A stretch of DNA of 13,365 nucleotides from Chlamydiales bacterium (GCA_047611865.1 JBLFWS010000093.1:1-13365), one strand, 5' to 3'; counted from the first letter of the stretch, positions 3,021 to 13,188 are shown. Translations and numbers: made by a program. Notes: generated by a model from the letters alone, not told the origin.

Positions 3021-4460
3021 CTAGGAGGGTATAGCAGCCACCTGTTTTTTTTCGGTAATAAATTTTTGCCCGCAATAGGCTGACCAGATCCAGAATATCT
3101 TGATAATGGAGATGGAAATAATGGCTACAGGTAGCGCACTGGAAAGAGTTTGGAAGGTCCCTAAAAGAAATTGAAGGTATATACCTTCGCAGGATTTACC
3201 CAGTTTAGGGCAGAAGCTGTCTACAATGGGTTTTCCTTGCACCTTGGTTTGTAGGGGGAGATAGGTAAAGGCAAGTTCCTTGGATACATCGAAGAAGGTG
3301 TATTTGCAGACGCGGTTTAAAGTAAAGTAGATAGCTCCGAGTCCAACGGTATAATGTAAAAAGATGGGGTCTGCGGAAGCAGAAGCGGAAAAGAAGTAAA
3401 TTAAAATTCCGCAAGGAAGCAAAAGAATGGGGGTCGCTGAGGCGGCTATTCCCCAGGAGAAATACTTTACTATCTGTGCAGCTCCAACAAGGGAAAGCAG
3501 GGTAGAAAATACTCCGATATAAATGGTCACCTGGTTCAGGTACATATTAAAGGCAACGGGATCCGGATGCAGAATACTGAGTTGATTGTACCAGAGTACT
3601 TCCATGAGACTGGTGCTAAAGAAATAAGCACAAGTCATCCACATTAGTGGCCAAAGACCTCTTGTAGAGATTATCTGCTTCAGATGAACGGATAAAGGGG
3701 TTTTGCTGGCGTCGTTCTTGAGTTGCTCTTCTATCACCCCTTGTTCTTGGAAATGATAGCGATACAATAAGTAATAGATGCAAGCAACGATTACTCCCGT
3801 TATCACGATGAAAGTGGCTGTATAGTTAAGGAAATTTTCCCATTTCTCTATGGAGCTGAGGTCAGAGCCGGAGCTGGCCCAAAGGGTAAACTTTCCGGAG
3901 CAAACTCCGGAAAGGTTAGCGAGGAAAATGAGGAAAGGGTATAGCCTTTTCGCTTCTTCAGGGTGGGTCATTCTATTGGCAAAACCCCAGAAGAGCAAAA
4001 GAATGACGGTTGTTCCCCACATCTCAGAGATAATATAAAAAAAGGAGAGGTACCAGTGTCTGAAAATTTCGGAAATGGGTGCCATCCAATTAGGAAGGAG
4101 TTCTTTTAAAAATATCCCGGCAGCGTGCCATTCTATGAGTTCTCGGTTAGGGTAGAATACAAAGAAAAATAGCATGTAGTAGATGAGGAATGGGAAGAAA
4201 ATCATAAAGAAAAGTGCTTTCTGGCTAAACCGGGAAGACAGAGATATGTAACCCACAGAAAATCCCCAGGCAATCGGCAGCAGGAACCACGTTTTAATAA
4301 AAGGTAGTGCCTCAGCTTTTAAATGGGGGTGGGTGACGATAAGAGTTTCTTTAATGTTTCGTAGTAGGTGGTAGTCCGTTGTGAGCAATAAGCACATTAT
4401 TGCCATTGGGAGAAAGCGGAGCATCTCTGAACGGGAAAATGGAAACAAGAATTTTATCAT
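3021..4460 (-). CDS. ntt: Nucleotide transport protein (NTT/TLC ATP/ADP translocase family), divergent paralog
   Basis: Multi-TM 479-aa protein with LLRNIKETL, FIKTW, SEMWG, FWGFANRMT..EEAKRLYP and KYTFFDVSKELAF...KVQGK...D....LGKS. Confidence 0.9.
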   Translation of the reverse strand: MIKFLFPFSRSEMLRFLPMAIMCLLLTTDYHLLRNIKETLIVTHPHLKAEALPFIKTWFLLPIAWGFSVGYISLSSRFSQKALFFMIFFPFLIYYMLFFFVFYPNRELIEWHAAGIFLKELLPNWMAPISEIFRHWYLSFFYIISEMWGTTVILLLFWGFANRMTHPEEAKRLYPFLIFLANLSGVCSGKFTLWASSGSDLSSIEKWENFLNYTATFIVITGVIVACIYYLLYRYHFQEQGVIEEQLKNDASKTPLSVHLKQIISTRGLWPLMWMTCAYFFSTSLMEVLWYNQLSILHPDPVAFNMYLNQVTIYIGVFSTLLSLVGAAQIVKYFSWGIAASATPILLLPCGILIYFFSASASADPIFLHYTVGLGAIYFTLNRVCKYTFFDVSKELAFTYLPLQTKVQGKPIVDSFCPKLGKSCEGIYLQFLLGTFQTLSSALPVAIISISIIKIFWIWSAYCGQKFITEKKQVAAIPS

Positions 4461-4487: not shown

Positions 4488-5951
4488 TTAATCTTCAGAA
4501 TATTCTAAACGTTTTTTATATAAAAGTGAAAGGATATTAATGGATCGTATCCAAAACAAGCACATAACTACGAGTGTCCCTAATAAATAGATGAATGCTG
4601 AGGAGAAATTGGTAAAAAAGGCGAAAACTCCTTGCTGGATCAAAGAACCGGCAGACTTGCCGAGACGAACGCCCACAACATCTACAGCGGCTTTCCCTTT
4701 TACTTTAGATTCCTGATCTAAGGGAAGGTAAGCCATTTCCTTTGTTGGGTCAAATAATGCGTATTTGATGGATTTGCCGAAAATATTTGTAAGAGAGCCC
4801 AAGACGATCACGAGGAAAAGGAATGAGCTTCCGATTGCCTGTAGCTTAACGTCAAGAAAATTTTCTAAATACACACTGGAGAAGAACGATAGGCCAGAGA
4901 TCAGAATAAAAATTGGAGGTATCAGTGCTCCTATCCTCCACCCAAAGAATCTGAGGCAAAGGCTACCTACGCTCATCAGGAGAATCGTAGAAACTCCAGT
5001 AGCGACAGAGAAATATCCTAAGAGGGTCGTGAATTCATTTTTAGTCTCGGAGTAACTTTCAATGTAGTATTTCCAGGAGATCTCAAGAAGGTTACTAGTA
5101 ACGGCAAAGCAGAGAACCATGACGGCCATATGGCTAAGGTAAGGGGAGTTGGCCACGTGTTTTAGACTGTCTTTGATAGAAAGGGTGGTCTTTTTCTTTG
5201 TTTGGTTTCCCTTTTCCTCTGTATCCATGGGGACAATGTTTTTATTGATATATCTGTAAAGAAATAATATCGCTGTACTAGTCACCAAAAGGATAATGGT
5301 AAAGTAAGCAAAAGAGTGCTCCCAGCTCCTCTGATAGTTTTGCGATGTCTCACGGGATAACAATACGAGAGTGATGCCCCCCATGATCATCCCGAAATCC
5401 GCAATCTGACCAAAGAGAGGATAAAATCTTTTGGCTTGATCTGTGGAAACAAAAGAGTTGGTAAATTGCCAGAAAAGCAGCGAGATCATCACACTGCTCC
5501 ACAACTCAGAAATGAAATAGAAGAAAGTAAAAGGCCAGTATTCTATGAGCACAGCTAGATGATAGAGACCGCCGTGTAAGAAAGAGTCGGGTAGGTATGA
5601 GTAAATGCTTGTCAGCTTAAAGAAGTCCACATAGGGATGGATGACAAACCCAAAAACAGCAAAAACAAGCATGAATGCCAATATTATGCCGCAGAAAATG
5701 CTGCTGGGCTGAAAGTGGTTGCTTAATTTGGAATAGACGAAGAAAAAAACGAACATAAGGGGCAGTACAAACCATGTCTTGACGAATGCCAGGGAGAAAG
5801 CTCCATTGGTCATCACAATCAAAGTGTCTTTTAAGTTGCGCAAGAGGGTGTTACAAAATATGATAAGCAACATTAGAATGGCTAGAGACAAAAACTTTTT
5901 CATCTCATTGTTTTCTATGGGAAATAGGACTTTTCGAAATTTTGAAGTCAT
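4488..5951 (-). CDS. ntt: Nucleotide transport protein (NTT/TLC ATP/ADP translocase family)
   Basis: Multi-TM 487-aa protein with LLRNLKDTL, FVKTW, SELWSS, FWQFTN...AKRFYPLF and near-canonical KYALFDPTKEMAYLPLD...KVKGKAAVDVVGVRLGKS. Confidence 0.93.
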   Translation of the reverse strand: MTSKFRKVLFPIENNEMKKFLSLAILMLLIIFCNTLLRNLKDTLIVMTNGAFSLAFVKTWFVLPLMFVFFFVYSKLSNHFQPSSIFCGIILAFMLVFAVFGFVIHPYVDFFKLTSIYSYLPDSFLHGGLYHLAVLIEYWPFTFFYFISELWSSVMISLLFWQFTNSFVSTDQAKRFYPLFGQIADFGMIMGGITLVLLSRETSQNYQRSWEHSFAYFTIILLVTSTAILFLYRYINKNIVPMDTEEKGNQTKKKTTLSIKDSLKHVANSPYLSHMAVMVLCFAVTSNLLEISWKYYIESYSETKNEFTTLLGYFSVATGVSTILLMSVGSLCLRFFGWRIGALIPPIFILISGLSFFSSVYLENFLDVKLQAIGSSFLFLVIVLGSLTNIFGKSIKYALFDPTKEMAYLPLDQESKVKGKAAVDVVGVRLGKSAGSLIQQGVFAFFTNFSSAFIYLLGTLVVMCLFWIRSINILSLLYKKRLEYSED

Positions 5952-5957
5952 GTTTCT

Positions 5958-8018
5958 CTACTGCAGTTGGGTAAGTATTTTTTTTAGTTTCTGTCGGTCT
6001 GATTCATATCGGAACATAGGGTGACAATTTTCCCATATTTCAAGGAAAGAGTCATCAGGGATTTTTACAGGCGTTTTACCAAAGAAAGCTTTACACTCGG
6101 GAGTATGCTCCCAAGAGATGGATAAAAGACTTTCAAGGAATTCTGGCTTGATAGTAAATCCGCCCAAACATTCAGCTTCTACACCAAGAAAATGCCAGAA
6201 CGCCATAGCCTTTTCGTTAAGATCCTCTGTGGCAGGAGTCCAATAGCGATCATTCTTTTGAGCCCAAGGGACAAAGGGCAAGAGATCCTGGAGAATACCT
6301 GGCAGGGGAGGGCTGAGGGCAAAGGTCGTAGCTCTCTGATCATGATGGGGTATGCAGGCCAGGCTTATGCCTCGTGTGATCCAGTGTATTTTTTCGTATC
6401 GTTTGAGAAGAGGAATGAGGTTTTTAATCTGCTGCTCCCAAACATCCCTACTGAGAGGCAGGGTACTTTCCCCACAGCCCCCGAGGTCGAAGCGATAGGT
6501 ATGAAAACCAAGGTCTACACATTCTCGGGACAGGTCGTGGAAGATATAGTTTAAGCCAGAGCGATTTTCACCCAAGCCATGGAGGAAGACGACAGCTTCT
6601 TTTTTTTCCGATACCCAAGGGAACTGGTGGAGGACGTTAAAGCTCGAAGATGAGAAGGGGACGCTCTCTATCTCGGGGTGGGGGGCATTCTCATGGTGGA
6701 TCGGTTTTGTCATTCCGTGATTCTTTATTACGTTTGAATAATATTCGCCACTGCCTTTTATCGTCCGCTCAAATGTGTCAAAATTTACATGGTGCAGGCC
6801 AAAGCGTTTCTCGTAGCCATGGGCCCATTCGAAATTGTCCAGAAAGGACCACACGAAGTAACCCTTCAGAGGGCCTCCCTCTTCTCTGAAGCGGTGAGCC
6901 TGAGAAAAGTGCTTTTCGAGGTACTCTATCCTTCTGCTGTCATCTTCAACGGATGTGCCATTTTCTGTGATGAAGATCTCTTTGGGGGCATATTCCTTAT
7001 GGAGTCGATCCAGCGTTTGGTAAAGTCCGTCCTTGCTGTAACCCCACATATCCGAAAAGGGATTGAAAAAGGGTTCAAGGATTTGAGTGCTTAGAAGGCT
7101 GTTGCTATCATCAAAGCGAATCTTTAGGGAGGTGTAATAGTTAACGCCTATAAAGTCAGGTTCTTGGGAGATAATAGCAGGGTCTTCTTCGTGGATGAAA
7201 GACTCCATCTCAGGGAACTTGTCACGCAGAACTTTTGGATAAGGGTGACGATAGAGAGGGGCAAGAAAAAATTGGTTGAGATAAGCGTCATGAAGGCCAG
7301 CAGCGGCTTGGTCTTTTGCTTCGGAGCCTTCAATTTCAATAGGGTGTAAGTTGAGAGCTATACCTATTTTAGCGCTGCTGTCTATTTCTCGCATAGCCTG
7401 AACGGCCAGCCCGTGGGATAGCATAAGGTGGTGCCCGGTACTTAAAGCCTTGGAGGCATCTTTTACTCCGGGAGCATGGTCTCCTGTGAGGTGTCCAAGG
7501 ACAGAGACGATGTAGGGTTCATTGTGAGTGACCCAATATTTCACTCTCCGGTGGAAACGGCGGAACACGACCTGGGCATAATGGGCGAAATGATAAGCGG
7601 TCTCTCTCTCGGGCCAGCCTCCTTCGTCCTCTAAAGCCTGAGGTAAATCCCAATGATATAGTGTGACAAAGGGTTCTATTTTGTGCTTGAGGAGACAGTC
7701 GATAATTTTTTCGTAGAATAAGAGTCCTTCTTCGTTGATTTCACCTTTTCCCGAGGGGATTATACGGGGCCATGAGATGGAAAAACGATAGGACTTAAGA
7801 CCTACTTGGGCCATGAGCCTGATGTCTTCTTCAAAGCGGTGGAAATGGTCGGCAGCGACCTTTACGTCGGAAGCGTCCTTGATATTTCCTGGGACGGAAC
7901 AAAATTGATCCCAAATGGACAGGCCTTTGCCTCCTTCATTCCATCCTCCCTCGATTTGAACTGCCGATGTGGCAGATCCCCATAGAAAGTCTATGGGGAA
8001 AGACTTCTTATCTTGCAT
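5958..8018 (-). CDS. GH1 beta-glucosidase fused to a C-terminal alpha/beta-hydrolase domain
   Basis: GH1 (about 8018-6710): FLWGSATSAVQIEG, YRFSISWPRI, TLYHWDLP, acid/base HNEP, nucleophile ITENG, WSFLDNFEW. C-terminal domain (about 6640-5958): FLHGLGENR, YRFDLGGCGES, GISLA, late His (NCHPMF). Confidence 0.92.
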   Translation of the reverse strand: MQDKKSFPIDFLWGSATSAVQIEGGWNEGGKGLSIWDQFCSVPGNIKDASDVKVAADHFHRFEEDIRLMAQVGLKSYRFSISWPRIIPSGKGEINEEGLLFYEKIIDCLLKHKIEPFVTLYHWDLPQALEDEGGWPERETAYHFAHYAQVVFRRFHRRVKYWVTHNEPYIVSVLGHLTGDHAPGVKDASKALSTGHHLMLSHGLAVQAMREIDSSAKIGIALNLHPIEIEGSEAKDQAAAGLHDAYLNQFFLAPLYRHPYPKVLRDKFPEMESFIHEEDPAIISQEPDFIGVNYYTSLKIRFDDSNSLLSTQILEPFFNPFSDMWGYSKDGLYQTLDRLHKEYAPKEIFITENGTSVEDDSRRIEYLEKHFSQAHRFREEGGPLKGYFVWSFLDNFEWAHGYEKRFGLHHVNFDTFERTIKGSGEYYSNVIKNHGMTKPIHHENAPHPEIESVPFSSSSFNVLHQFPWVSEKKEAVVFLHGLGENRSGLNYIFHDLSRECVDLGFHTYRFDLGGCGESTLPLSRDVWEQQIKNLIPLLKRYEKIHWITRGISLACIPHHDQRATTFALSPPLPGILQDLLPFVPWAQKNDRYWTPATEDLNEKAMAFWHFLGVEAECLGGFTIKPEFLESLLSISWEHTPECKAFFGKTPVKIPDDSFLEIWENCHPMFRYESDRQKLKKILTQLQ

Positions 8019-8020
8019 AT

Positions 8021-9169
8021 TTATGCTTCAACCAAGCTTTTGCATTTGGACTGCGCATAAGCCAGGTGATAACCCAAGCCTGCGTAGCGCAAAATGCTTT
8101 CATAATAAAAGTCTCTGAAGGGGTCTCTCTCGCAGCGAGCAAAGAATTCCTCGTGGAGGAAGCCGGGATTTCTCCTGGCGACACCTTCGAAGATATCTTT
8201 AGCGGTGACAAAATCTTCTTGCGCCTGAGCCAGTAGGCCGAGGTTTACTCGTACGTGGTCCAAAATTGGCTCTATTTCAAGGGCCTTGTCGAAAGAGGCT
8301 TTGGCCTCGGAAAAGAGTTGGAGGGAGAGTTGCATGACACCGATCATATTCCACATCAAAGGGTCTTCGGGATTCATTTCCAAAGATTTCTTGTAAGCTT
8401 CAAGAGCTTCTTCATCCTTACCTACAGATCGCAGAACCTGAGCTTGACAGTAGTAGGAGTGGGAGGAGTCAGATCCTAGAGAGACGCTTTTTTCTACAGC
8501 TTCGAGAGCTTCATCGAATTTGCCAAGGGTACGCTGTATCAGGCCAATATATCCTAGTATGCGGTGGTTCTTGGGATCTTGCTTTACTTCTTCTTTCATG
8601 AGGCGCAAGTAATACTCTGCCTTTTTGTCGCGATCGTCAGCTGAGCGGCAGTGGCCAAAGTGATTGAGTACTACGGGAGCATCCAGGATTTCTCCGCCAT
8701 AACGAGTGATGGAGTTTTTAACGGACTCAGCTACAAGGCCTTCGTATCTGATGGTGGGGTCGTTACGGAATAGTTTAAGGTTTTTGGAGGTGTACCATCC
8801 GCCGTTTCCGAAGAAGTTGTAACGCCATACACGGTAGCCTGAGATATTAGAGGGGGAGGATTGAGCTACTTGAAGCAGAGCTTCAGCTTCCTTTTTTTCA
8901 AAACACTCGTCAGCATCAAGGTAGAGCACCCAGGGAGTATCGACAAACTGGAGGGCGTAGTTACGGGCTTCACTGAAATTGTTTTTGAAAGGAACTTCCA
9001 TGACATCAGGGGTGAGACTTCTTGCAATTTCTAAAGTATCATCAGTGGAGCCTGTGTCGACGATAACAATTTTAGAAACGATGGAATCAACACTGCGTAC
9101 GCACTTTTCCAGAAATCTGGATTCGTTTTTTACGATTAAACACAAAGTAAGGGGGCTTTGACTATTCAT
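8021..9169 (-). CDS. GT2 glycosyltransferase with C-terminal TPR repeats
   Basis: LCLIVKNE, VDTGSTDDT, FSEARN and YLDADE (DxD), followed by TPR helices (e.g. YCQAQVLRSVGKDEEALEAYKKSLEMNP). ATG 9169 with an AAGGA RBS is preferred over GTG 9196. Confidence 0.9.
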   Translation of the reverse strand: MNSQSPLTLCLIVKNESRFLEKCVRSVDSIVSKIVIVDTGSTDDTLEIARSLTPDVMEVPFKNNFSEARNYALQFVDTPWVLYLDADECFEKKEAEALLQVAQSSPSNISGYRVWRYNFFGNGGWYTSKNLKLFRNDPTIRYEGLVAESVKNSITRYGGEILDAPVVLNHFGHCRSADDRDKKAEYYLRLMKEEVKQDPKNHRILGYIGLIQRTLGKFDEALEAVEKSVSLGSDSSHSYYCQAQVLRSVGKDEEALEAYKKSLEMNPEDPLMWNMIGVMQLSLQLFSEAKASFDKALEIEPILDHVRVNLGLLAQAQEDFVTAKDIFEGVARRNPGFLHEEFFARCERDPFRDFYYESILRYAGLGYHLAYAQSKCKSLVEA

Positions 9170-9199
9170 ATTATATGTCCTTATTATCTTATTCACCCT

Positions 9200-9931
9200 T
9201 TAGACAAGGGGACTTGTTAGGTTTCCGAGGAAGAGATGCATTTTTTGAGCAAGACAGTTCCGAGCTTCCTCTGTTTCAAATAAGTGGTCGCTATCAGGTA
9301 TGGGTTGAGGGGAAACGCCCAGATCGGCAAGCTCTAAGGCTGCTACTACGACCTTGTGGTCTTTCTCTCCGTAAAACAGGGCGACCGGGACCTTTGCGGG
9401 GAGTGTCTCGCGAGGGGCAATGTGTGAGCGTTCTTCAAAAAAGGCTCTTTTCAGGTAAAGATCATCACCTCGGATTGCTTTCTTCTCACCGCTAAAAGAT
9501 AGTGTCGGCTTGTCGATGATATCGCTGCTGATTAAGAGGACAGCCCGGCAGTTGGCATGGTCAGGGTATACCATCATGGGAATCACACCACCGATGCTGA
9601 TCCCCGCAAGGATCAAGTGCTGAAAAGCTAACTCGGTCTGAACCCAGTGGATCACGTTGTTGAGGTCTTCTGCCATTCCGGAAAAGGTGGTATCTTCGAA
9701 AAGTCCAGAGGAGTCACCAGACCCCCTGAAATCAAAACGCAACACGGCATGGCCTTTCTCTACGAGGTGACGAGAAAGAGTTTCCAATAATTTCTGGTTG
9801 CCGACTTTGTCGCCAGTAAGTCCGTGGCAGAGGATGACGAGCTTATCTGTTGAGTTTGCAGGCTGATCTATCACGAGCGAAAGCCAATATCCAGGTTCTA
9901 CGAGATGAATTCTTTCGCTACGCTTGATCAT
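9200..9931 (-). CDS. Alpha/beta hydrolase (serine esterase type)
   Basis: LCHGLTG, RFDFRGSGDS, nucleophile elbow GISIG, YGEKD (Asp) and SDHLF (His) give an intact triad. ATG 9931 overlaps the upstream TAA (TAATG), consistent with translational coupling. Confidence 0.9.
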   Translation of the reverse strand: MIKRSERIHLVEPGYWLSLVIDQPANSTDKLVILCHGLTGDKVGNQKLLETLSRHLVEKGHAVLRFDFRGSGDSSGLFEDTTFSGMAEDLNNVIHWVQTELAFQHLILAGISIGGVIPMMVYPDHANCRAVLLISSDIIDKPTLSFSGEKKAIRGDDLYLKRAFFEERSHIAPRETLPAKVPVALFYGEKDHKVVVAALELADLGVSPQPIPDSDHLFETEEARNCLAQKMHLFLGNLTSPLV

Positions 9932-11664
9932 TAGGCTAGGGCATCCTTCCATTGTAAACCTGCCTGAACATAGCGCTGTTCCAGCTGAGGCCTGAATTTA
10001 TGCCAGCACTCTTTGGGGAAAAAGTGAACTCGCTTGTCGAAGTTGATGAAAGGGAGATAAACTTCAAAATTGTGTTTATGATCGTCACCGATGAAAAAGA
10101 GGTCCTCATGACAATCCTTACGGAAAGCCCAGTCCTGGATTTCTATGATGGGGTCGCGGTCGTTTGCAGAGAGATCAATGCACAGGGCGTCTTTAGTAGG
10201 AGGCTCTCCTCTCTCGAAATCCTCGAACGTGGCAAAGAAGTCTCCTTTAGTCTCGGGATTGAAGACTTCTTCAAAGAGAGAGAATGCCTGAGGACTCTCT
10301 TCAGGATGCTTGTCCAGAAAGCGCTTTAGATTGCTCTTCCACTGAAGAAAGCGAGCCTGAGAGAAGGATCGGTCATGATAGAGATGGTAGCCTGCGAGTG
10401 CACGAGAATAGGCGAAGCGGCCACCACCCTGATAAAGGCGATAGGCGAAGTCGATGTCTTCAAGGCCCCACCCGGTAAAGTCTTCATCGAATTTACAGTC
10501 TTGGACAAGAGAGGCATCTACCGAGAAATTGCAAGTGTAGGCAAGACTCCAGGGCTTGTTAAGAGAATGAAGGTCAAAATTATAATAACCTAAAAGCTTT
10601 TCGCGGCTATCGAGTCGGGCAAGTTCTGGGGACAGAGTAGTTACAGCTTCCGGGAGGTGCCTTCTGCTCCCAAGGAGAATCAGGTGGTTACTAAGGGCGT
10701 GGGTGCTACGCAGGTTTTCTAGAAAATCACTGGGATAAAGCATGTCTGAGTCGGTGAAGAGGATGATATCGCCAGTAGCCTGCTTCATGCCCTCGTTGCG
10801 GGCGGCGCCGGGGCCTCGGTTGGAGATTTTGATGGCTTGGGCGCCATACTTTTTGGCGACAGCAAAAGAAGCGTCAGTAGAGCCGTCATCCACGACGATA
10901 AGCTCTATCTCGGAGGGATTGATGGTCTGCGCCTTCATGGAACGCAGTGTTAGCTCAAGGTGATCTTCTCTATTATGAACGGGGATGATAACGGAAACTT
11001 TGAGTTTCTTTTGGCCTTGATGATGGAGTATACGCTTTTCTAATTGAGACACGGTCTGAGAGAATTCTGTTAGAGTAGAGTCCCAGACAATGGAATTACT
11101 GCTAAGGCGTAGGGGATTCTCTTTACGAGTCCAGTCCAAGAGATCCCTATCGCGACGCATAATTCTAACGTCTTCATCAGAAAGAGGCATGCCTATGCGT
11201 TGACTTTCTTGAACAGCCCTCCTCAATCGCTCTTCAGGAGACGCAGTAAGAAATATTTTGCAGGAGGCATCGGGGAAGAAGATTCCACCTGTTCGCCCTT
11301 CTACAATCAAGCTGTCTTGAGTAAAATTCTTTTGAATAAATGTCTCTATCCACTCCTGCACCCAGGGCTCCATGGCAAGCTGAGCACAGCGAGCCTCTAA
11401 TGCAGCATCTTGGAATAGCTCCCGATCAAGTAGCTGATTATCGACTTTCGGGAGGTACATAGGGGTTCCGTCATCGGCACTCTCCAGGGACAAACGGAAT
11501 CTACCAGCGTCAACTCTAAAGTCTATACCCCGGAGAGTTCCCCACGCAAGGGCGCGGAATAACATGCCCAGACTGAGAAAACGGCGCTTGAGTTTCTTGG
11601 CAAGACCAAGGCCCACCGCGGTTTTTCCCACACCACTGGGTCCATCAATTGTTATAGCGTCCAT
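9931..11664 (-). CDS. cmk: Cytidylate-kinase-like domain fused to a GT2 glycosyltransferase (577 aa)
   Basis: N-terminus: ITIDGPSGVGKT, EGR...FPDA..KIFLTASPEER, RD..D..R...PL (Cmk fold). From about 11001: VSVIIPVHN, VDDGSTD, GPGAARN, FTDSD, FDEDFTGWGLEDIDFAYRL (GT2 with GT7_C-like tail). ATG 11664 has a GGAGA RBS. The symbol refers to fold only; probably not the housekeeping cmk. Confidence 0.88.
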   Translation of the reverse strand: MDAITIDGPSGVGKTAVGLGLAKKLKRRFLSLGMLFRALAWGTLRGIDFRVDAGRFRLSLESADDGTPMYLPKVDNQLLDRELFQDAALEARCAQLAMEPWVQEWIETFIQKNFTQDSLIVEGRTGGIFFPDASCKIFLTASPEERLRRAVQESQRIGMPLSDEDVRIMRRDRDLLDWTRKENPLRLSSNSIVWDSTLTEFSQTVSQLEKRILHHQGQKKLKVSVIIPVHNREDHLELTLRSMKAQTINPSEIELIVVDDGSTDASFAVAKKYGAQAIKISNRGPGAARNEGMKQATGDIILFTDSDMLYPSDFLENLRSTHALSNHLILLGSRRHLPEAVTTLSPELARLDSREKLLGYYNFDLHSLNKPWSLAYTCNFSVDASLVQDCKFDEDFTGWGLEDIDFAYRLYQGGGRFAYSRALAGYHLYHDRSFSQARFLQWKSNLKRFLDKHPEESPQAFSLFEEVFNPETKGDFFATFEDFERGEPPTKDALCIDLSANDRDPIIEIQDWAFRKDCHEDLFFIGDDHKHNFEVYLPFINFDKRVHFFPKECWHKFRPQLEQRYVQAGLQWKDALA

Positions 11665-11697
11665 ATTAGCTTCTCCAAGTGGAAAAAGAGTTAGGTG

Positions 11698-11726
11698 ATT
11701 ATAGGAAAAGAAAGTGTTCAGTACAA
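11698..11726 (-). promoter_or_regulatory. Sigma70/sigma66 promoter for the kinase-GT-GH1-NTT operon
   Basis: On the minus strand: TTGTAC (11726-11721), 17-nt spacer, perfect TATAAT (11703-11698); 33 nt upstream of ATG 11664. Confidence 0.6.
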
Positions 11727-11782
11727 TAAGAAAGAATGTGTTATGCTTGTTAGCCGAAGTTAGTTTGTAAAAAGGAAATAGC

Positions 11783-12388
11783 ATGAACGGTAATGCTAAA
11801 GCAAAACTTGTAACAATATGTGGGATTGACGGCTCTGGCAAAACAACCTTAGCGGAAAATTTGCAGGAGAGCTGTAGAAAAAAAGGATTAAAAACTTTTC
11901 TTGTACATCCTCTTTCCATACAAGAAGAGCAAAAGCACGTACTCCAAGAGCTCCGAAATGCGGATTTCCCCTCTATAAAACAGAAAGAAAAGGTGCTAGG
12001 CGATTTCTTAAGCTTTTGCTTTCTAAGGAATGTCCTCACAAATGTTCAAGAGGCTATGGAAAACTACGATGTAGTGATATGTGACCGCTACCTGCCCTCA
12101 CACCTGGTAGCCCAAGCCTGCTTCGGCAATAACATGAGGCACCTAAAACCCTGCTTTGCACTCCTCCCAATACCCGATCTATCCATTCTGGTAGATGTAT
12201 CAGTAGATACAGCCCTCGAACGTATCGGCGCCAGAAAAAACATCATGATGCACGAAAATAGAGAATACCTCGGAAATGCCAGGCTCCACTACCTGAAACA
12301 GGCCAAACTCTCCAAGCTAACCGTAGTAGACGGGGCAAGCCCTCCCGACGAGATATTAAAGAGAGCTCTCGAGCAACTGGGCATCTAA
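11783..12388 (+). CDS. tmk: Thymidylate-kinase-like nucleoside monophosphate kinase
   Basis: P-loop CGIDGSGKTT, VICDRY..S, PDLSILVDV...ALERI..R; AAGGA RBS upstream. Divergent from the operon; base-binding motifs are atypical. Confidence 0.85.
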   Translation: MNGNAKAKLVTICGIDGSGKTTLAENLQESCRKKGLKTFLVHPLSIQEEQKHVLQELRNADFPSIKQKEKVLGDFLSFCFLRNVLTNVQEAMENYDVVICDRYLPSHLVAQACFGNNMRHLKPCFALLPIPDLSILVDVSVDTALERIGARKNIMMHENREYLGNARLHYLKQAKLSKLTVVDGASPPDEILKRALEQLGI

Positions 12389-12411
12389 ACGTTTTCTCGC
12401 TTTTACCCTTG

Positions 12412-12422
12412 GGGCTTTTCCC
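12412..12422 (+). repeat. Probable left target-site duplication of the IS231-like element
   Basis: GGGCTTTTCCC abuts the left IR and fits the 11-bp GGG(N)5CCC target consensus known for IS231A. The second copy is not in the window. Confidence 0.6.
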
Positions 12423-13188
12423 CATACGTATCAACCTAAAAATTTAAAGTGATATAAATAAAGAATTTAAGGTAAAAAGCCTCTAACTAGAAACCGACTA
12501 AAGCATTCAAGTTAGAGGTAAAAATGCATTTTGAAGATAGGCTAGAAGATATTTCATCAAAAATCAAGACAATTTTCGCTCAACATTCACTGGATACCTT
12601 TGCCAAAGAAACAAATTTCATACAGCGTTCGACATCCAGGGTTAATCCACTAAACTTTCTAATCCTTATGGTTGTTCATATTACCCTGAATGCCTTGCAC
12701 TCTCTTGAGACCATGACAGAGATACTTGGAGGGCTTTCAGGAGGTGTTAAAATTTCCTCTCAAGCACTATCTAAGTATCTCAATCGTAACTTTACTGTTA
12801 GATACCTACGCAGATGTTACGGCCACCTTTTGCAGAATTGGACATCTGATAGCATGGATAAACTTAAACAAAAAGGCCTTCTCAAGGGATTTAAAAAGGT
12901 TTTCATTGAAGATAGTACTTCATGTGAATTGCACGAACAACTCGCAGAGGCTTTTAAGGGTAGCGGTGGATGTGCTTCCAAAGCTGGATATAAAATCCAT
13001 CTGACTTGGGAAGCTATTTCTGGACATATTGAGGACCTTAAAATTACAGCAGGTTCAGTTCCAGATCAGGCTATGGCTAGTCAAATTCTCAATAGAATAG
13101 GACAAGGTGACCTCATAATTCGTGATCTCGCTTATTTTATTTTACCGATTTTGAAAAAATAGCCGAACTAGGGGCCTTTTTTTTAAGC
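12423..13188 (+). mobile_element. IS4-family (IS231-like) insertion sequence, left part
   Basis: Left end CATACGTATCAACCTAAAAA resembles the IS231 IR as I recall it (CATGCCCATCAACTTAAG). It is preceded by a GGG(N)5CCC site and followed by an IS4-type transposase ORF. Confidence 0.75.

Follow-up and report, generated by a model that had tools for sequence, protein, structure and literature searches.

A kinase fused to a glycosyltransferase

The window, by which we mean the whole stretch of 13,365 nucleotides (nt) that was analysed, is a contig of a Chlamydiales bacterium (GCA_047611865.1 JBLFWS010000093.1:1-13365; contig C93 of genome G000 in our numbering). Its minus strand carries a gene (9931..11664) for a protein of 577 amino acids (aa), in which a cytidylate kinase (Cmk)-like domain is joined to a family 2 glycosyltransferase (GT2) domain and a family-specific tail. 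It is the first gene of a tightly spaced operon coding for hydrolases, a second GT2 and two nucleotide transporters, and a gene for a Tmk-like kinase is transcribed divergently from it. The kinase–glycosyltransferase fusion is real and rare and its domain architecture is new, whereas the cluster around it is undescribed but of a recognisable type.

The longest mechanical open reading frame at this position is longer than the gene (9931..12039, minus strand; 702 aa, GTG start). It runs through the Tmk-like gene (11783-12388, plus strand), with which its first 125 codons overlap, and these codons have no counterpart in the homologues; this reading was therefore rejected. The ATG at 11664 has a GGAG 8 nt upstream and corresponds to the methionine at which the homologues begin, and these observations, together with the overlap, set the start at 11664 and the length at 577 aa, with the stop at 9931. 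Residues 1-215 (11020..11664, minus strand) make up the Cmk-like domain, which retains an intact P-loop (GPSGVGKT) and in which the cytosine-reading residues are replaced. A linker of ~7 residues (216-222) connects it to the GT2 catalytic domain of the inverting GT-A type (residues ~216-487; 10204..11019, minus strand), which includes three C-terminal helices, and the protein ends with a C-terminal α/β subdomain of β-α-β-α-β-α-β topology (residues ~488-577; 9934..10203, minus strand). The AlphaFold model of the full-length protein has a mean predicted local distance difference test (pLDDT) score of 90.4 and a predicted template modelling (pTM) score of 0.90.

The preliminary description of this DNA had read the same uninterrupted 577-aa frame with a Cmk-like and a GT2 domain, a reading now borne out by Pfam, the start-site evidence, the AlphaFold model and the homologues. 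It had also named a stop or frameshift between the domains as the observation that would speak against a fusion, and none was found. Contigs of three public runs, all labelled ice metagenomes, cover the fusion, unbroken in two of the runs and as several fragments in the third; they differ from the window by one single-nucleotide polymorphism and 0 indels. These runs may be the source sample and thus do not count as independent evidence; the recurrence of the uninterrupted architecture in 10 further distinct chlamydial proteins is for this reason the stronger indication, and an assembly artefact or frameshift at the junction was rejected. No RNA run matching the stretch was present among the listed public runs.

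The kinase domain matches Cytidylate_kin (PF02224) at residues 4-208 with 101 bits (cut-off 26) and misses the TIGR00017 equivalog cut-off (82.2 bits vs 135.55). Structural comparison (VIA) with seven entries of solved Cmk structures gave Z scores of 24-26 and a root-mean-square deviation (rmsd) of ~2.1 over ~208 residues, at 22-29% identity in the structural alignments. The canonical cmk of the genome, with 237.8 bits to PF02224 against 104 for the fused domain in the same comparison, is located on contig C99, downstream of uppS and cdsA, and the canonical tmk on contig C3; consequently, both the fused Cmk-like domain and the Tmk-like kinase of the window are extra paralogues. With a canonical cmk elsewhere and a changed base pocket in the fused domain, its identity as the housekeeping Cmk was rejected.

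According to a study of Cmk (PMC3603445), the cytosine is hydrogen-bonded by R110, D132 and S36, the phosphates are bound by R41 and R131, the base is stacked on by Y40, and the Yersinia Cmk mutants R110A, R131A and R188A are inactive. We mapped the kinase residues to the E. coli Cmk numbering via the 1kdo alignment. S14 (S10 in the window protein), K18 (K14), R41 (R37), R131 (R124), R157 (R149), R181 (R173), D185 (D177) and R188 (R180) are kept, as is the aromatic character of Y40 (F36); changed are S36 (L32), R110 (Q103) and D132 (T125). For comparison across the family, 11 distinct chlamydial full-length sequences were used, one sequence that stood twice in the alignment being counted once. 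The equivalents of K18, S14, R41, R131, R157, R181, D185 and R188 are kept in 11/11 of them, and in all 11 the S36 position is hydrophobic (L, I, M or V) and the D132 position is T, S or N; the R110 position holds R in six, Q in four (the window protein included) and P in one. The nearest stand-alone kinases are at most 37% identical, and S/T, R and D occupy the three cytosine-reading positions in all seven that were aligned, the Cmk of this genome among them. No stand-alone form of the divergent kinase was found, the best short matches being ordinary Cmk at ≤37% identity. Because the catalytic set is kept and the pocket changes are consistent across the family, the residue pattern carries the signature of a predicted working phosphotransferase with altered base specificity, which may prefer a uracil- or thymine-like 4-oxo base.

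The GT2 domain matches Glycos_transf_2 (PF00535) from residue 224 onwards with 97.3 bits (cut-off 23.3), followed by a weak Glyco_transf_7C match (residues 392-430) and no Pfam match beyond residue ~435. The DxD and GWGLED motifs noticed earlier are present, as D305-S-D307 and at residues 399-403, along with HLYHDR at 427-432; D305, D307, E402, D403, H427, H430, D431 and R432 are invariant in 21/21 aligned sequences. The acidic residue of the C-terminal xWGxED motif is what we take to be the catalytic base. This part of the protein is an intact inverting GT-A glycosyltransferase. In profile comparisons, the whole domain aligned with the chondroitin polymerase K4CP (155 bits) and with GalT1, an enzyme of protein O-glycans (91 bits), while the matches to TarS (78 bits), TarP (72 bits) and the nucleoside glycosyltransferase AvpGT (65 bits, positions 1-95 only) were confined to the N-terminal half. 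The best NCBIfam model, EpsD (NF041875), scored 118.5 bits and missed its cut-off of 370. The structural comparison likewise ranked K4CP first (Z 26.2, 227 residues, rmsd 2.2, 24% identity) and AvpGT second (Z 23.9, rmsd 3.3, 254 residues; chain residues 1-291, up to model residue 491), with RmlT, TarS, TarP, WrtF and GalNAc-T2 at Z of about 20-21, teichoic-acid glycosyltransferases reaching about 21. The fold comparison does not tell acceptor types apart, and the match to AvpGT is not specific, since K4CP scores higher. The proposal that the pattern DSR...PW...CNFS...FDEDFTGWGLED marks small-molecule or nucleoside GT2s was not supported, in view of the K4CP and GalT1 scores against the 65 bits over ~95 residues for AvpGT.

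The tail, previously described as an unassigned stretch of about 120 aa, proved to be shorter. Residues 435-487 form three helices that also occur in 260-aa GT2s of related clusters (see below) and align with the AvpGT C-terminus; hence they belong to the glycosyltransferase fold. What stands is a family-specific part of ~85 aa (residues ~488-577), a small α/β subdomain modelled with a tail pLDDT of 88.6. It has no Pfam family, and the wide fold search that had been suggested for it returned 0 of 48,161 chains at Z ≥ 8, with a best Z of 6.4. The fold matches were Rossmann-like fragments, among them several CARF domains as well as GT-B halves and SDR N-termini, and did not exceed the tool's stated noise level; an assignment of the tail to a known domain was rejected. 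A HMMER search among 1.84 billion representatives yielded 15 proteins at E ≤ 0.001, nearly all of them full-length, remnant-type or fragment members of the fusion family, and one a weak repetitive match that is probably spurious. The subdomain was found only alongside the kinase or a kinase remnant, both it and the kinase being absent from the 260-aa GT2s, and this co-occurrence hints that it packs against the kinase.

Distribution of the family and the conserved cluster

In a search of 5.8 billion proteins, both Pfam domains occurred in 10 other protein clusters among the 120 best matches, nine of them chlamydial or unlabelled metagenome proteins and one from Micromonospora, and a genome search added one chlamydial copy. 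The 10 further chlamydial full-length fusions share 37-82% identity; the Micromonospora protein is a degenerate form. Among the 400 genomes of the phylum that were scored, the full fusion is present in three (G000, G324 and G093), a form spanning only residues 181-556 in one (G235), and a 260-aa GT2 alone, 38-41% identical, in four; the remaining matches at E ≤ 1e-20 were ordinary Cmk genes. Eight further database proteins (442-453 aa) resemble the remnant form of G235; in these, too, the remnant is still attached to the glycosyltransferase and the tail. A metagenome scan kept 80 loci (79 distinct), one of which is a close relative on a 2.3-kb contig, the others being generic GWGLED-type GT2s at 26-39% identity. 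Public records call the members of the family merely ‘cytidylate kinase’ or ‘glycosyltransferase’. The preliminary description knew of no Cmk fusion with a GT2, in agreement with NCBIfam, which returned models for Cmk fusions with PanC, AroA and Der and none with a GT2, and literature searches, with subscription journals outside their coverage, found neither the architecture nor the cluster described. In one chlamydial family (f7), ordinary Cmk matches lie within open frames of 444-480 aa, i.e., a housekeeping Cmk fused to another domain, presumably the acyltransferase fusion mentioned in the preliminary description.

Five minus-strand genes follow the fusion gene of the window: the first overlaps its end by 22 nt, and the others are spaced by gaps of 2-27 nt. 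The overlapping gene (9200..9952) encodes a 250-aa α/β hydrolase and is also the 3' neighbour of the fusion gene in G324, G093 and G235. It is followed by the gene for a second GT2 with C-terminal TPR repeats (8021..9196, 391 aa; GT2-TPR), whose best NCBIfam match is the peptide glycosyltransferase SunS (70 bits vs a cut-off of 350), and which is present in 8/8 clusters examined. The next protein (5958..8018, 686 aa) combines a GH1 β-glucosidase (PF00232, 520 bits), above the TIGR03356 equivalog cut-off (532 bits vs 478.5), with an α/β-hydrolase-like domain of ~250 aa. This is a second fusion in the operon; in G324, G093 and G235 the two parts are separate adjacent genes (412-455 aa and 254-274 aa). 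Two TLC/NTT nucleotide transporter paralogues complete the operon: the first (4488..5951, 487 aa) matches PF03219 with 457 bits, and the second (3021..4460, 479 aa) with 324 bits, below the TIGR00769 cut-off (299 bits vs 387). They are among the three lowest-scoring of the seven TLC genes in the genome, the second being the lowest and most divergent. The divergent Tmk-like P-loop kinase (11783..12388, plus strand, 201 aa) matches PF02223 with 70.9 bits and TIGR00041 with 73.8 bits, under the cut-off of 83.25; in the comparison within the genome it scores 70.2 bits, against 156.7 for the canonical tmk.

At the contig end (12524-13365) lies the N-terminal half of an IS4-type DDE transposase gene (12524..13162, plus strand; PF01609 profile positions 2-93). 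Another contig of the genome, C159, begins with the C-terminal half of an IS4-type transposase (1-1022; PF01609 positions 115-199), followed by genes for a NUDIX protein, a 506-aa GFO-like protein, mdh, an unknown gene and a histidine phosphatase. Exact matching found no overlap between the ends of the two contigs. Probably, the cluster is interrupted by, or the assembly is broken at, one insertion sequence copy between the NUDIX and the Tmk-like/fusion genes. Read from a TTG start, the NUDIX protein of C159 (1069-1605, minus strand) begins with a hydrophobic stretch resembling a signal peptide, so that one has to assume a wrongly called start or an exported enzyme.

We examined eight loci, four of each of two variants, the set of genome G000 being read from its two contigs. 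In variant 1, all four genomes encode a GFO-like protein, NUDIX, the fusion (with a kinase remnant in G235), hydrolase, GT2-TPR, GH1, a second hydrolase, NTT and a histidine phosphatase, and in G324, G093 and G235 these genes stand in nearly identical order. The cluster of G093 is contiguous: GFO-like, NUDIX (a 336-aa double NUDIX in this genome), fusion, hydrolase, GT2-TPR, GH1, hydrolase-like, NTT, NTT, Tmk-like and histidine phosphatase, with mdh adjoining. Variant 2, also in four genomes, consists of GFO-like, NUDIX, the 260-aa GT2 (39-40% identical to the glycosyltransferase domain of the window protein), Tmk-like, hydrolase and GT2-TPR; the clusters of G123 and G159 continue with an unknown gene of ~230 aa and a MATE gene, confirmed in these two, the contigs of the other two being short. 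The Tmk-like gene occurs in 3/3 clusters with the full fusion and in 4/4 variant-2 clusters. In G324 it is situated beyond mdh; a 207-aa open reading frame upstream of the fusion in that genome was considered as its counterpart and rejected as unrelated to the Tmk-like gene of the window. No genes for polysaccharide export or polymerisation were found in any of the eight loci.

Parts of the cluster extend beyond Chlamydiota. The GFO-like/NUDIX module is widespread: 1124 homologues of the GFO-like protein reach E ≤ 1e-10, with 40-49% identity among the 120 listed, five of which are GFO-like/NUDIX fusions of ~650 aa. Literature searches of the same coverage found no study of this module. On a Bacillus tropicus plasmid (NZ_CP078082.1, 8989-18485), the gene for a 593-aa GFO-like/NUDIX fusion is followed by those for an unknown protein, a histidine phosphatase, a 987-aa AMP-binding protein resembling nonribosomal peptide synthetases (NRPS), an MFS transporter and a phosphopantetheinyl transferase (PPTase), with a macrolide-family glycosyltransferase and a hydrolase 3-5 kb upstream. 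This is apparently an undescribed compact nucleoside-type biosynthetic cluster, with a layout typical of natural-product clusters; its 272-aa neighbour showed no homology to the chlamydial hydrolase-like genes. In Micromonospora (10001-12601) and Nonomuraea (9767-12396), a fusion homologue with decayed kinase is directly followed by an APH-family phosphotransferase. The Micromonospora gene is surrounded by carbamoyltransferase, PhyH, GFO, A-KR-PCP, ABC, Glf and epimerase genes, and IS481/rve transposase genes stand on both sides of the Nonomuraea pair, an arrangement reminiscent of a mobile cassette for modification or resistance. As an APH-type kinase adjoins these homologues, the module of glycosyltransferase and tail is accompanied by a kinase of some fold in two phyla.

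Two further genes of the window lie on the plus strand. One (1244-2524) encodes a 426-aa protein with no Pfam family, a Cys/His-containing middle and a C-terminus that is basic, rich in Ser and Pro and includes a KKLRED-type stretch; it could be a secreted effector-like protein of this intracellular bacterium. The other (165-956), at the left contig end, belongs to the ComB-type 2-phosphosulfolactate phosphatase family (PF04029, 126 bits) and is apparently unrelated to the cluster.

A putative nucleoside pathway and its alternatives

Our preferred reading, held tentatively and with slightly less than even confidence, is that the fusion is a soluble bifunctional enzyme of a specialised nucleoside or nucleotide-analogue pathway rather than a housekeeping CMP kinase or a glycosyltransferase of the cell wall. 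It is the neighbours, i.e., NUDIX, Tmk-like kinase, histidine phosphatase, GFO-like protein, two TLC/NTT transporters and GH1, that point to nucleos(t)ide chemistry. Also in favour are the paralogue status of the kinase, the conservation of the cluster, the surroundings of the relatives in Bacillus, Micromonospora and Nonomuraea, the second rank of AvpGT in the structural comparison and the lack of polysaccharide export or polymerisation genes in the eight loci. The preliminary description had arrived at nucleos(t)ides as well; that idea gains from the genomic context and from the kept kinase residues with their changed base pocket, but its motif argument falls, K4CP being nearest by sequence. 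That kinase and glycosyltransferase act on the same nucleos(t)ide, as was then suggested, is conceivable from the fusion itself.

Two groups of described pathways offer a template. In the clusters for puromycin, A201A, cystocin and 3'-amino-3'-deoxyguanosine, as given in the respective reports (PMC11641026, PMC9239236), Pur10 is an NAD-dependent nucleoside triphosphate (NTP) dehydrogenase, Pur7 a Nudix enzyme acting from NTP to nucleoside monophosphate (NMP), Pur3 a monophosphatase and Pur4 an aminotransferase, accompanied by an exporter. In nucleocidin biosynthesis, the GT2 enzyme NucGT adds a 3'-O-β-glucose to adenosine analogues and the β-glucosidase NucGS removes it (PMC7017864); AvpGT and ScaGT act likewise on other nucleosides (PMC11959488).

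By analogy, the GFO/IDH/MocA-like dehydrogenase, NUDIX and histidine phosphatase would first turn a nucleoside triphosphate into a sugar-modified nucleoside, following the logic of Pur10, Pur7 and Pur3. The two GT2s would then attach one or two hexoses from UDP-sugars, onto a ribose hydroxyl or onto the first sugar, and the hexose might serve as a masking group, as with NucGT and AvpGT. Unmasking would be the task of the GH1 β-glucosidase and the α/β hydrolases, in the manner of NucGS. The Cmk-like domain and the Tmk-like kinase would phosphorylate a non-cytosine, probably pyrimidine-type, nucleoside monophosphate form, and the phosphorylated form would be moved by the dedicated NTT antiporters; in the variant cluster, the MATE pump would export the unphosphorylated form. 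Through the fusion, a single intermediate would be phosphorylated and glycosylated in a coupled manner; alternatively, the fusion might simply fix the stoichiometry of both activities.

Several observations weigh against this pathway. The likeness to the Pur10/Pur7/Pur3 module, whose dehydrogenase, Nudix and phosphatase classes are matched by GFO-like, NUDIX and His_Phos_1 proteins in 4/4 variant-1 clusters, holds at the level of enzyme class only, and Pfam scans of the eight loci detected no aminotransferase family, so that an equivalent of Pur4 is missing. By sequence, the glycosyltransferase domain is nearest to the capsule polymerase domain of K4CP and to EpsD-type models, and resembles AvpGT only over the nucleotide-binding half. 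The cluster members stem from related genomes and are not independent of one another; furthermore, the adjacency of C93 and C159 is inferred from the two transposase halves, without a bridging sequence. The kinase itself raises doubts. With Gln in place of R110, the copy in the window could be a poor kinase. The 445-aa forms keep ~100 aa of the kinase, without P-loop, NMP-binding region and LID, and in the Micromonospora homologue D replaces the last P-loop glycine and the R131 equivalent is absent. G235 has only the kinase remnant and no Tmk-like gene in the 20 kb examined. From G235, the eight remnant proteins and the degenerate Micromonospora P-loop it follows that kinase catalysis is dispensable for the glycosyltransferase in some lineages and not essential to the pathway.

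The same remnant and degenerate forms, together with the Gln of the window protein, would be expected if the kinase domain were no longer an enzyme and had become a module that binds nucleotides, regulates the glycosyltransferase or acts as its scaffold, on its way to loss. Remnant and C-terminal subdomain are always found in the same proteins, and the 260-aa GT2s lack both, which suggests a structural role. We nevertheless consider such a pseudokinase unlikely, since in 11/11 chlamydial full-length members the phosphate-binding and catalytic residues are kept throughout and the pocket changes are consistent, not random.

The glycosyltransferase scores lend themselves to another explanation, namely that the two GT2s assemble an oligosaccharide or attach sugars to a protein or to a component of the envelope, the kinase doing no more than providing pyrimidine nucleotides locally for the synthesis of sugar nucleotides, or keeping them in balance. 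The nearest solved relatives, K4CP and GalT1, the EpsD model and the SunS-type match of the adjoining GT2-TPR all agree with it, but the named models score far under their cut-offs, and the eight loci show no membrane anchor, flippase, polymerase, ABC/Wzx exporter or lipid-carrier enzyme and instead hold NUDIX, nucleotide kinases, phosphatase and NTT or MATE transporters. Moreover, a GT2 reaction releases a nucleoside diphosphate, not an NMP, hence an NMP kinase does not recycle the product of the glycosyltransferase. Taken together, glycan or glycoconjugate synthesis seems to us improbable.

We think just as little of a scavenging route, in which the NTTs import host nucleotides or nucleotide sugars, NUDIX, phosphatase, GH1 and hydrolases degrade them, the kinases re-phosphorylate UMP- or dTMP-type monophosphates, and the glycosyltransferases make a storage or protective glycoside. 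In its favour, chlamydiae rely on nucleotides that they import; the genome has seven TLC paralogues, of which the pair in the cluster is among the three lowest-scoring; the GH1 exceeds its β-glucosidase equivalog cut-off; an altered pocket (D132 to T, S or N) would suit a uracil-type base; and a protective glycoside would suit an ice-derived organism, given the label of the covering runs. Against this, the NTTs are replaced in variant-2 clusters by MATE, an exporter family, the GFO-like/NUDIX/phosphatase trio stands beside NRPS-like, PPTase and MFS genes in Bacillus, and a catabolic route would hardly be expected to include two glycosyltransferases and a dehydrogenase. A known anti-phage defence system was rejected, as PADLOC returned no system-level match (0 families for the fusion, 0 for the GFO-like protein) and generic matches only (NUDIX to PDC-S07, 65-93 bits; Tmk-like to PDC-M51B, 42 bits).

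Taken together, the parts of the cluster suggest that a specialised metabolite of nucleoside type is made or processed by environmental chlamydiae, organisms that are known chiefly for parasitising nucleotides, and such a compound could be biologically active. Cmk-fold kinases are regarded as strictly housekeeping, and a lineage with a rebuilt pocket, welded to a glycosyltransferase, provides a test case for the evolution of NMP-kinase specificity. A bolder version, which we hold to be a long shot, is that the intracellular chlamydial symbiont produces an analogue of a non-cytosine pyrimidine nucleotide, masked by a sugar, which its own Cmk-like and Tmk-like kinases phosphorylate and dedicated NTT antiporters deliver into the host cytosol. 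As a chain terminator or antimetabolite, the analogue could there be directed at, e.g., rival microbes or viruses that infect the host. Export of a nucleotide-level natural product via NTT would be a first, as would such a pathway in Chlamydiota. CMPK2 and viperin, a nucleotide kinase paired with a nucleotide-modifying enzyme, would form a parallel to the proposed pairing.

Comparison with known systems

With the Cmk proteins of E. coli, Yersinia and mycobacteria (1kdo/2cmk, 4e22, 3r20), the fusion has in common the fold, including the β insert of the bacterial NMP domain, the P-loop and the phosphate-binding residues. Unlike them, the window kinase is fused to a glycosyltransferase, is a second copy in its genome, and has L, Q and T in place of the cytosine readers S36, R110 and D132. 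The known fusions of Cmk with PanC (NF010004), AroA (NF008816) and Der (NF007071) are matched by the window kinase over their Cmk part with 74, 62 and 58 bits, respectively; they join a housekeeping Cmk to partners from primary metabolism, unlike the GT2 partner found here.

The glycosyltransferase domain has in common with the N-terminal GT2 domain of K4CP (2z86/2z87) the region of the DxD and xWGxED motifs, but K4CP is a polymerase with two glycosyltransferase domains from a capsule locus, whereas the fusion has one such domain and no polymer machinery nearby. NucGT, AvpGT and ScaGT, known from nucleocidin and tubercidin glucosides, belong to GT2 and have the inverting GT-A fold, as does the fusion, and the presence of a β-glucosidase gene in the same cluster resembles the pair of nucGT and nucGS (PMC7017864). 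These enzymes, in contrast, are stand-alone proteins of ~300 aa, lacking kinase and C-terminal subdomain, and the sequence likeness is limited to the N-terminal ~95 residues of the fusion's glycosyltransferase (AvpGT).

In comparison with the puromycin-type module, the chlamydial phosphatase is a histidine phosphatase, the GFO-like protein has a length of ~500 aa and no Pur4-type aminotransferase was seen in the loci; transport is by an exporter there and by MATE or NTT in the chlamydial clusters. The two glycosyltransferases, GH1, kinases and NTTs of the latter are without counterpart in the Pur-type clusters. At the level of enzyme class, the chlamydial cluster thus recalls both, and appears to join the puromycin-type and the nucleocidin-type logics.

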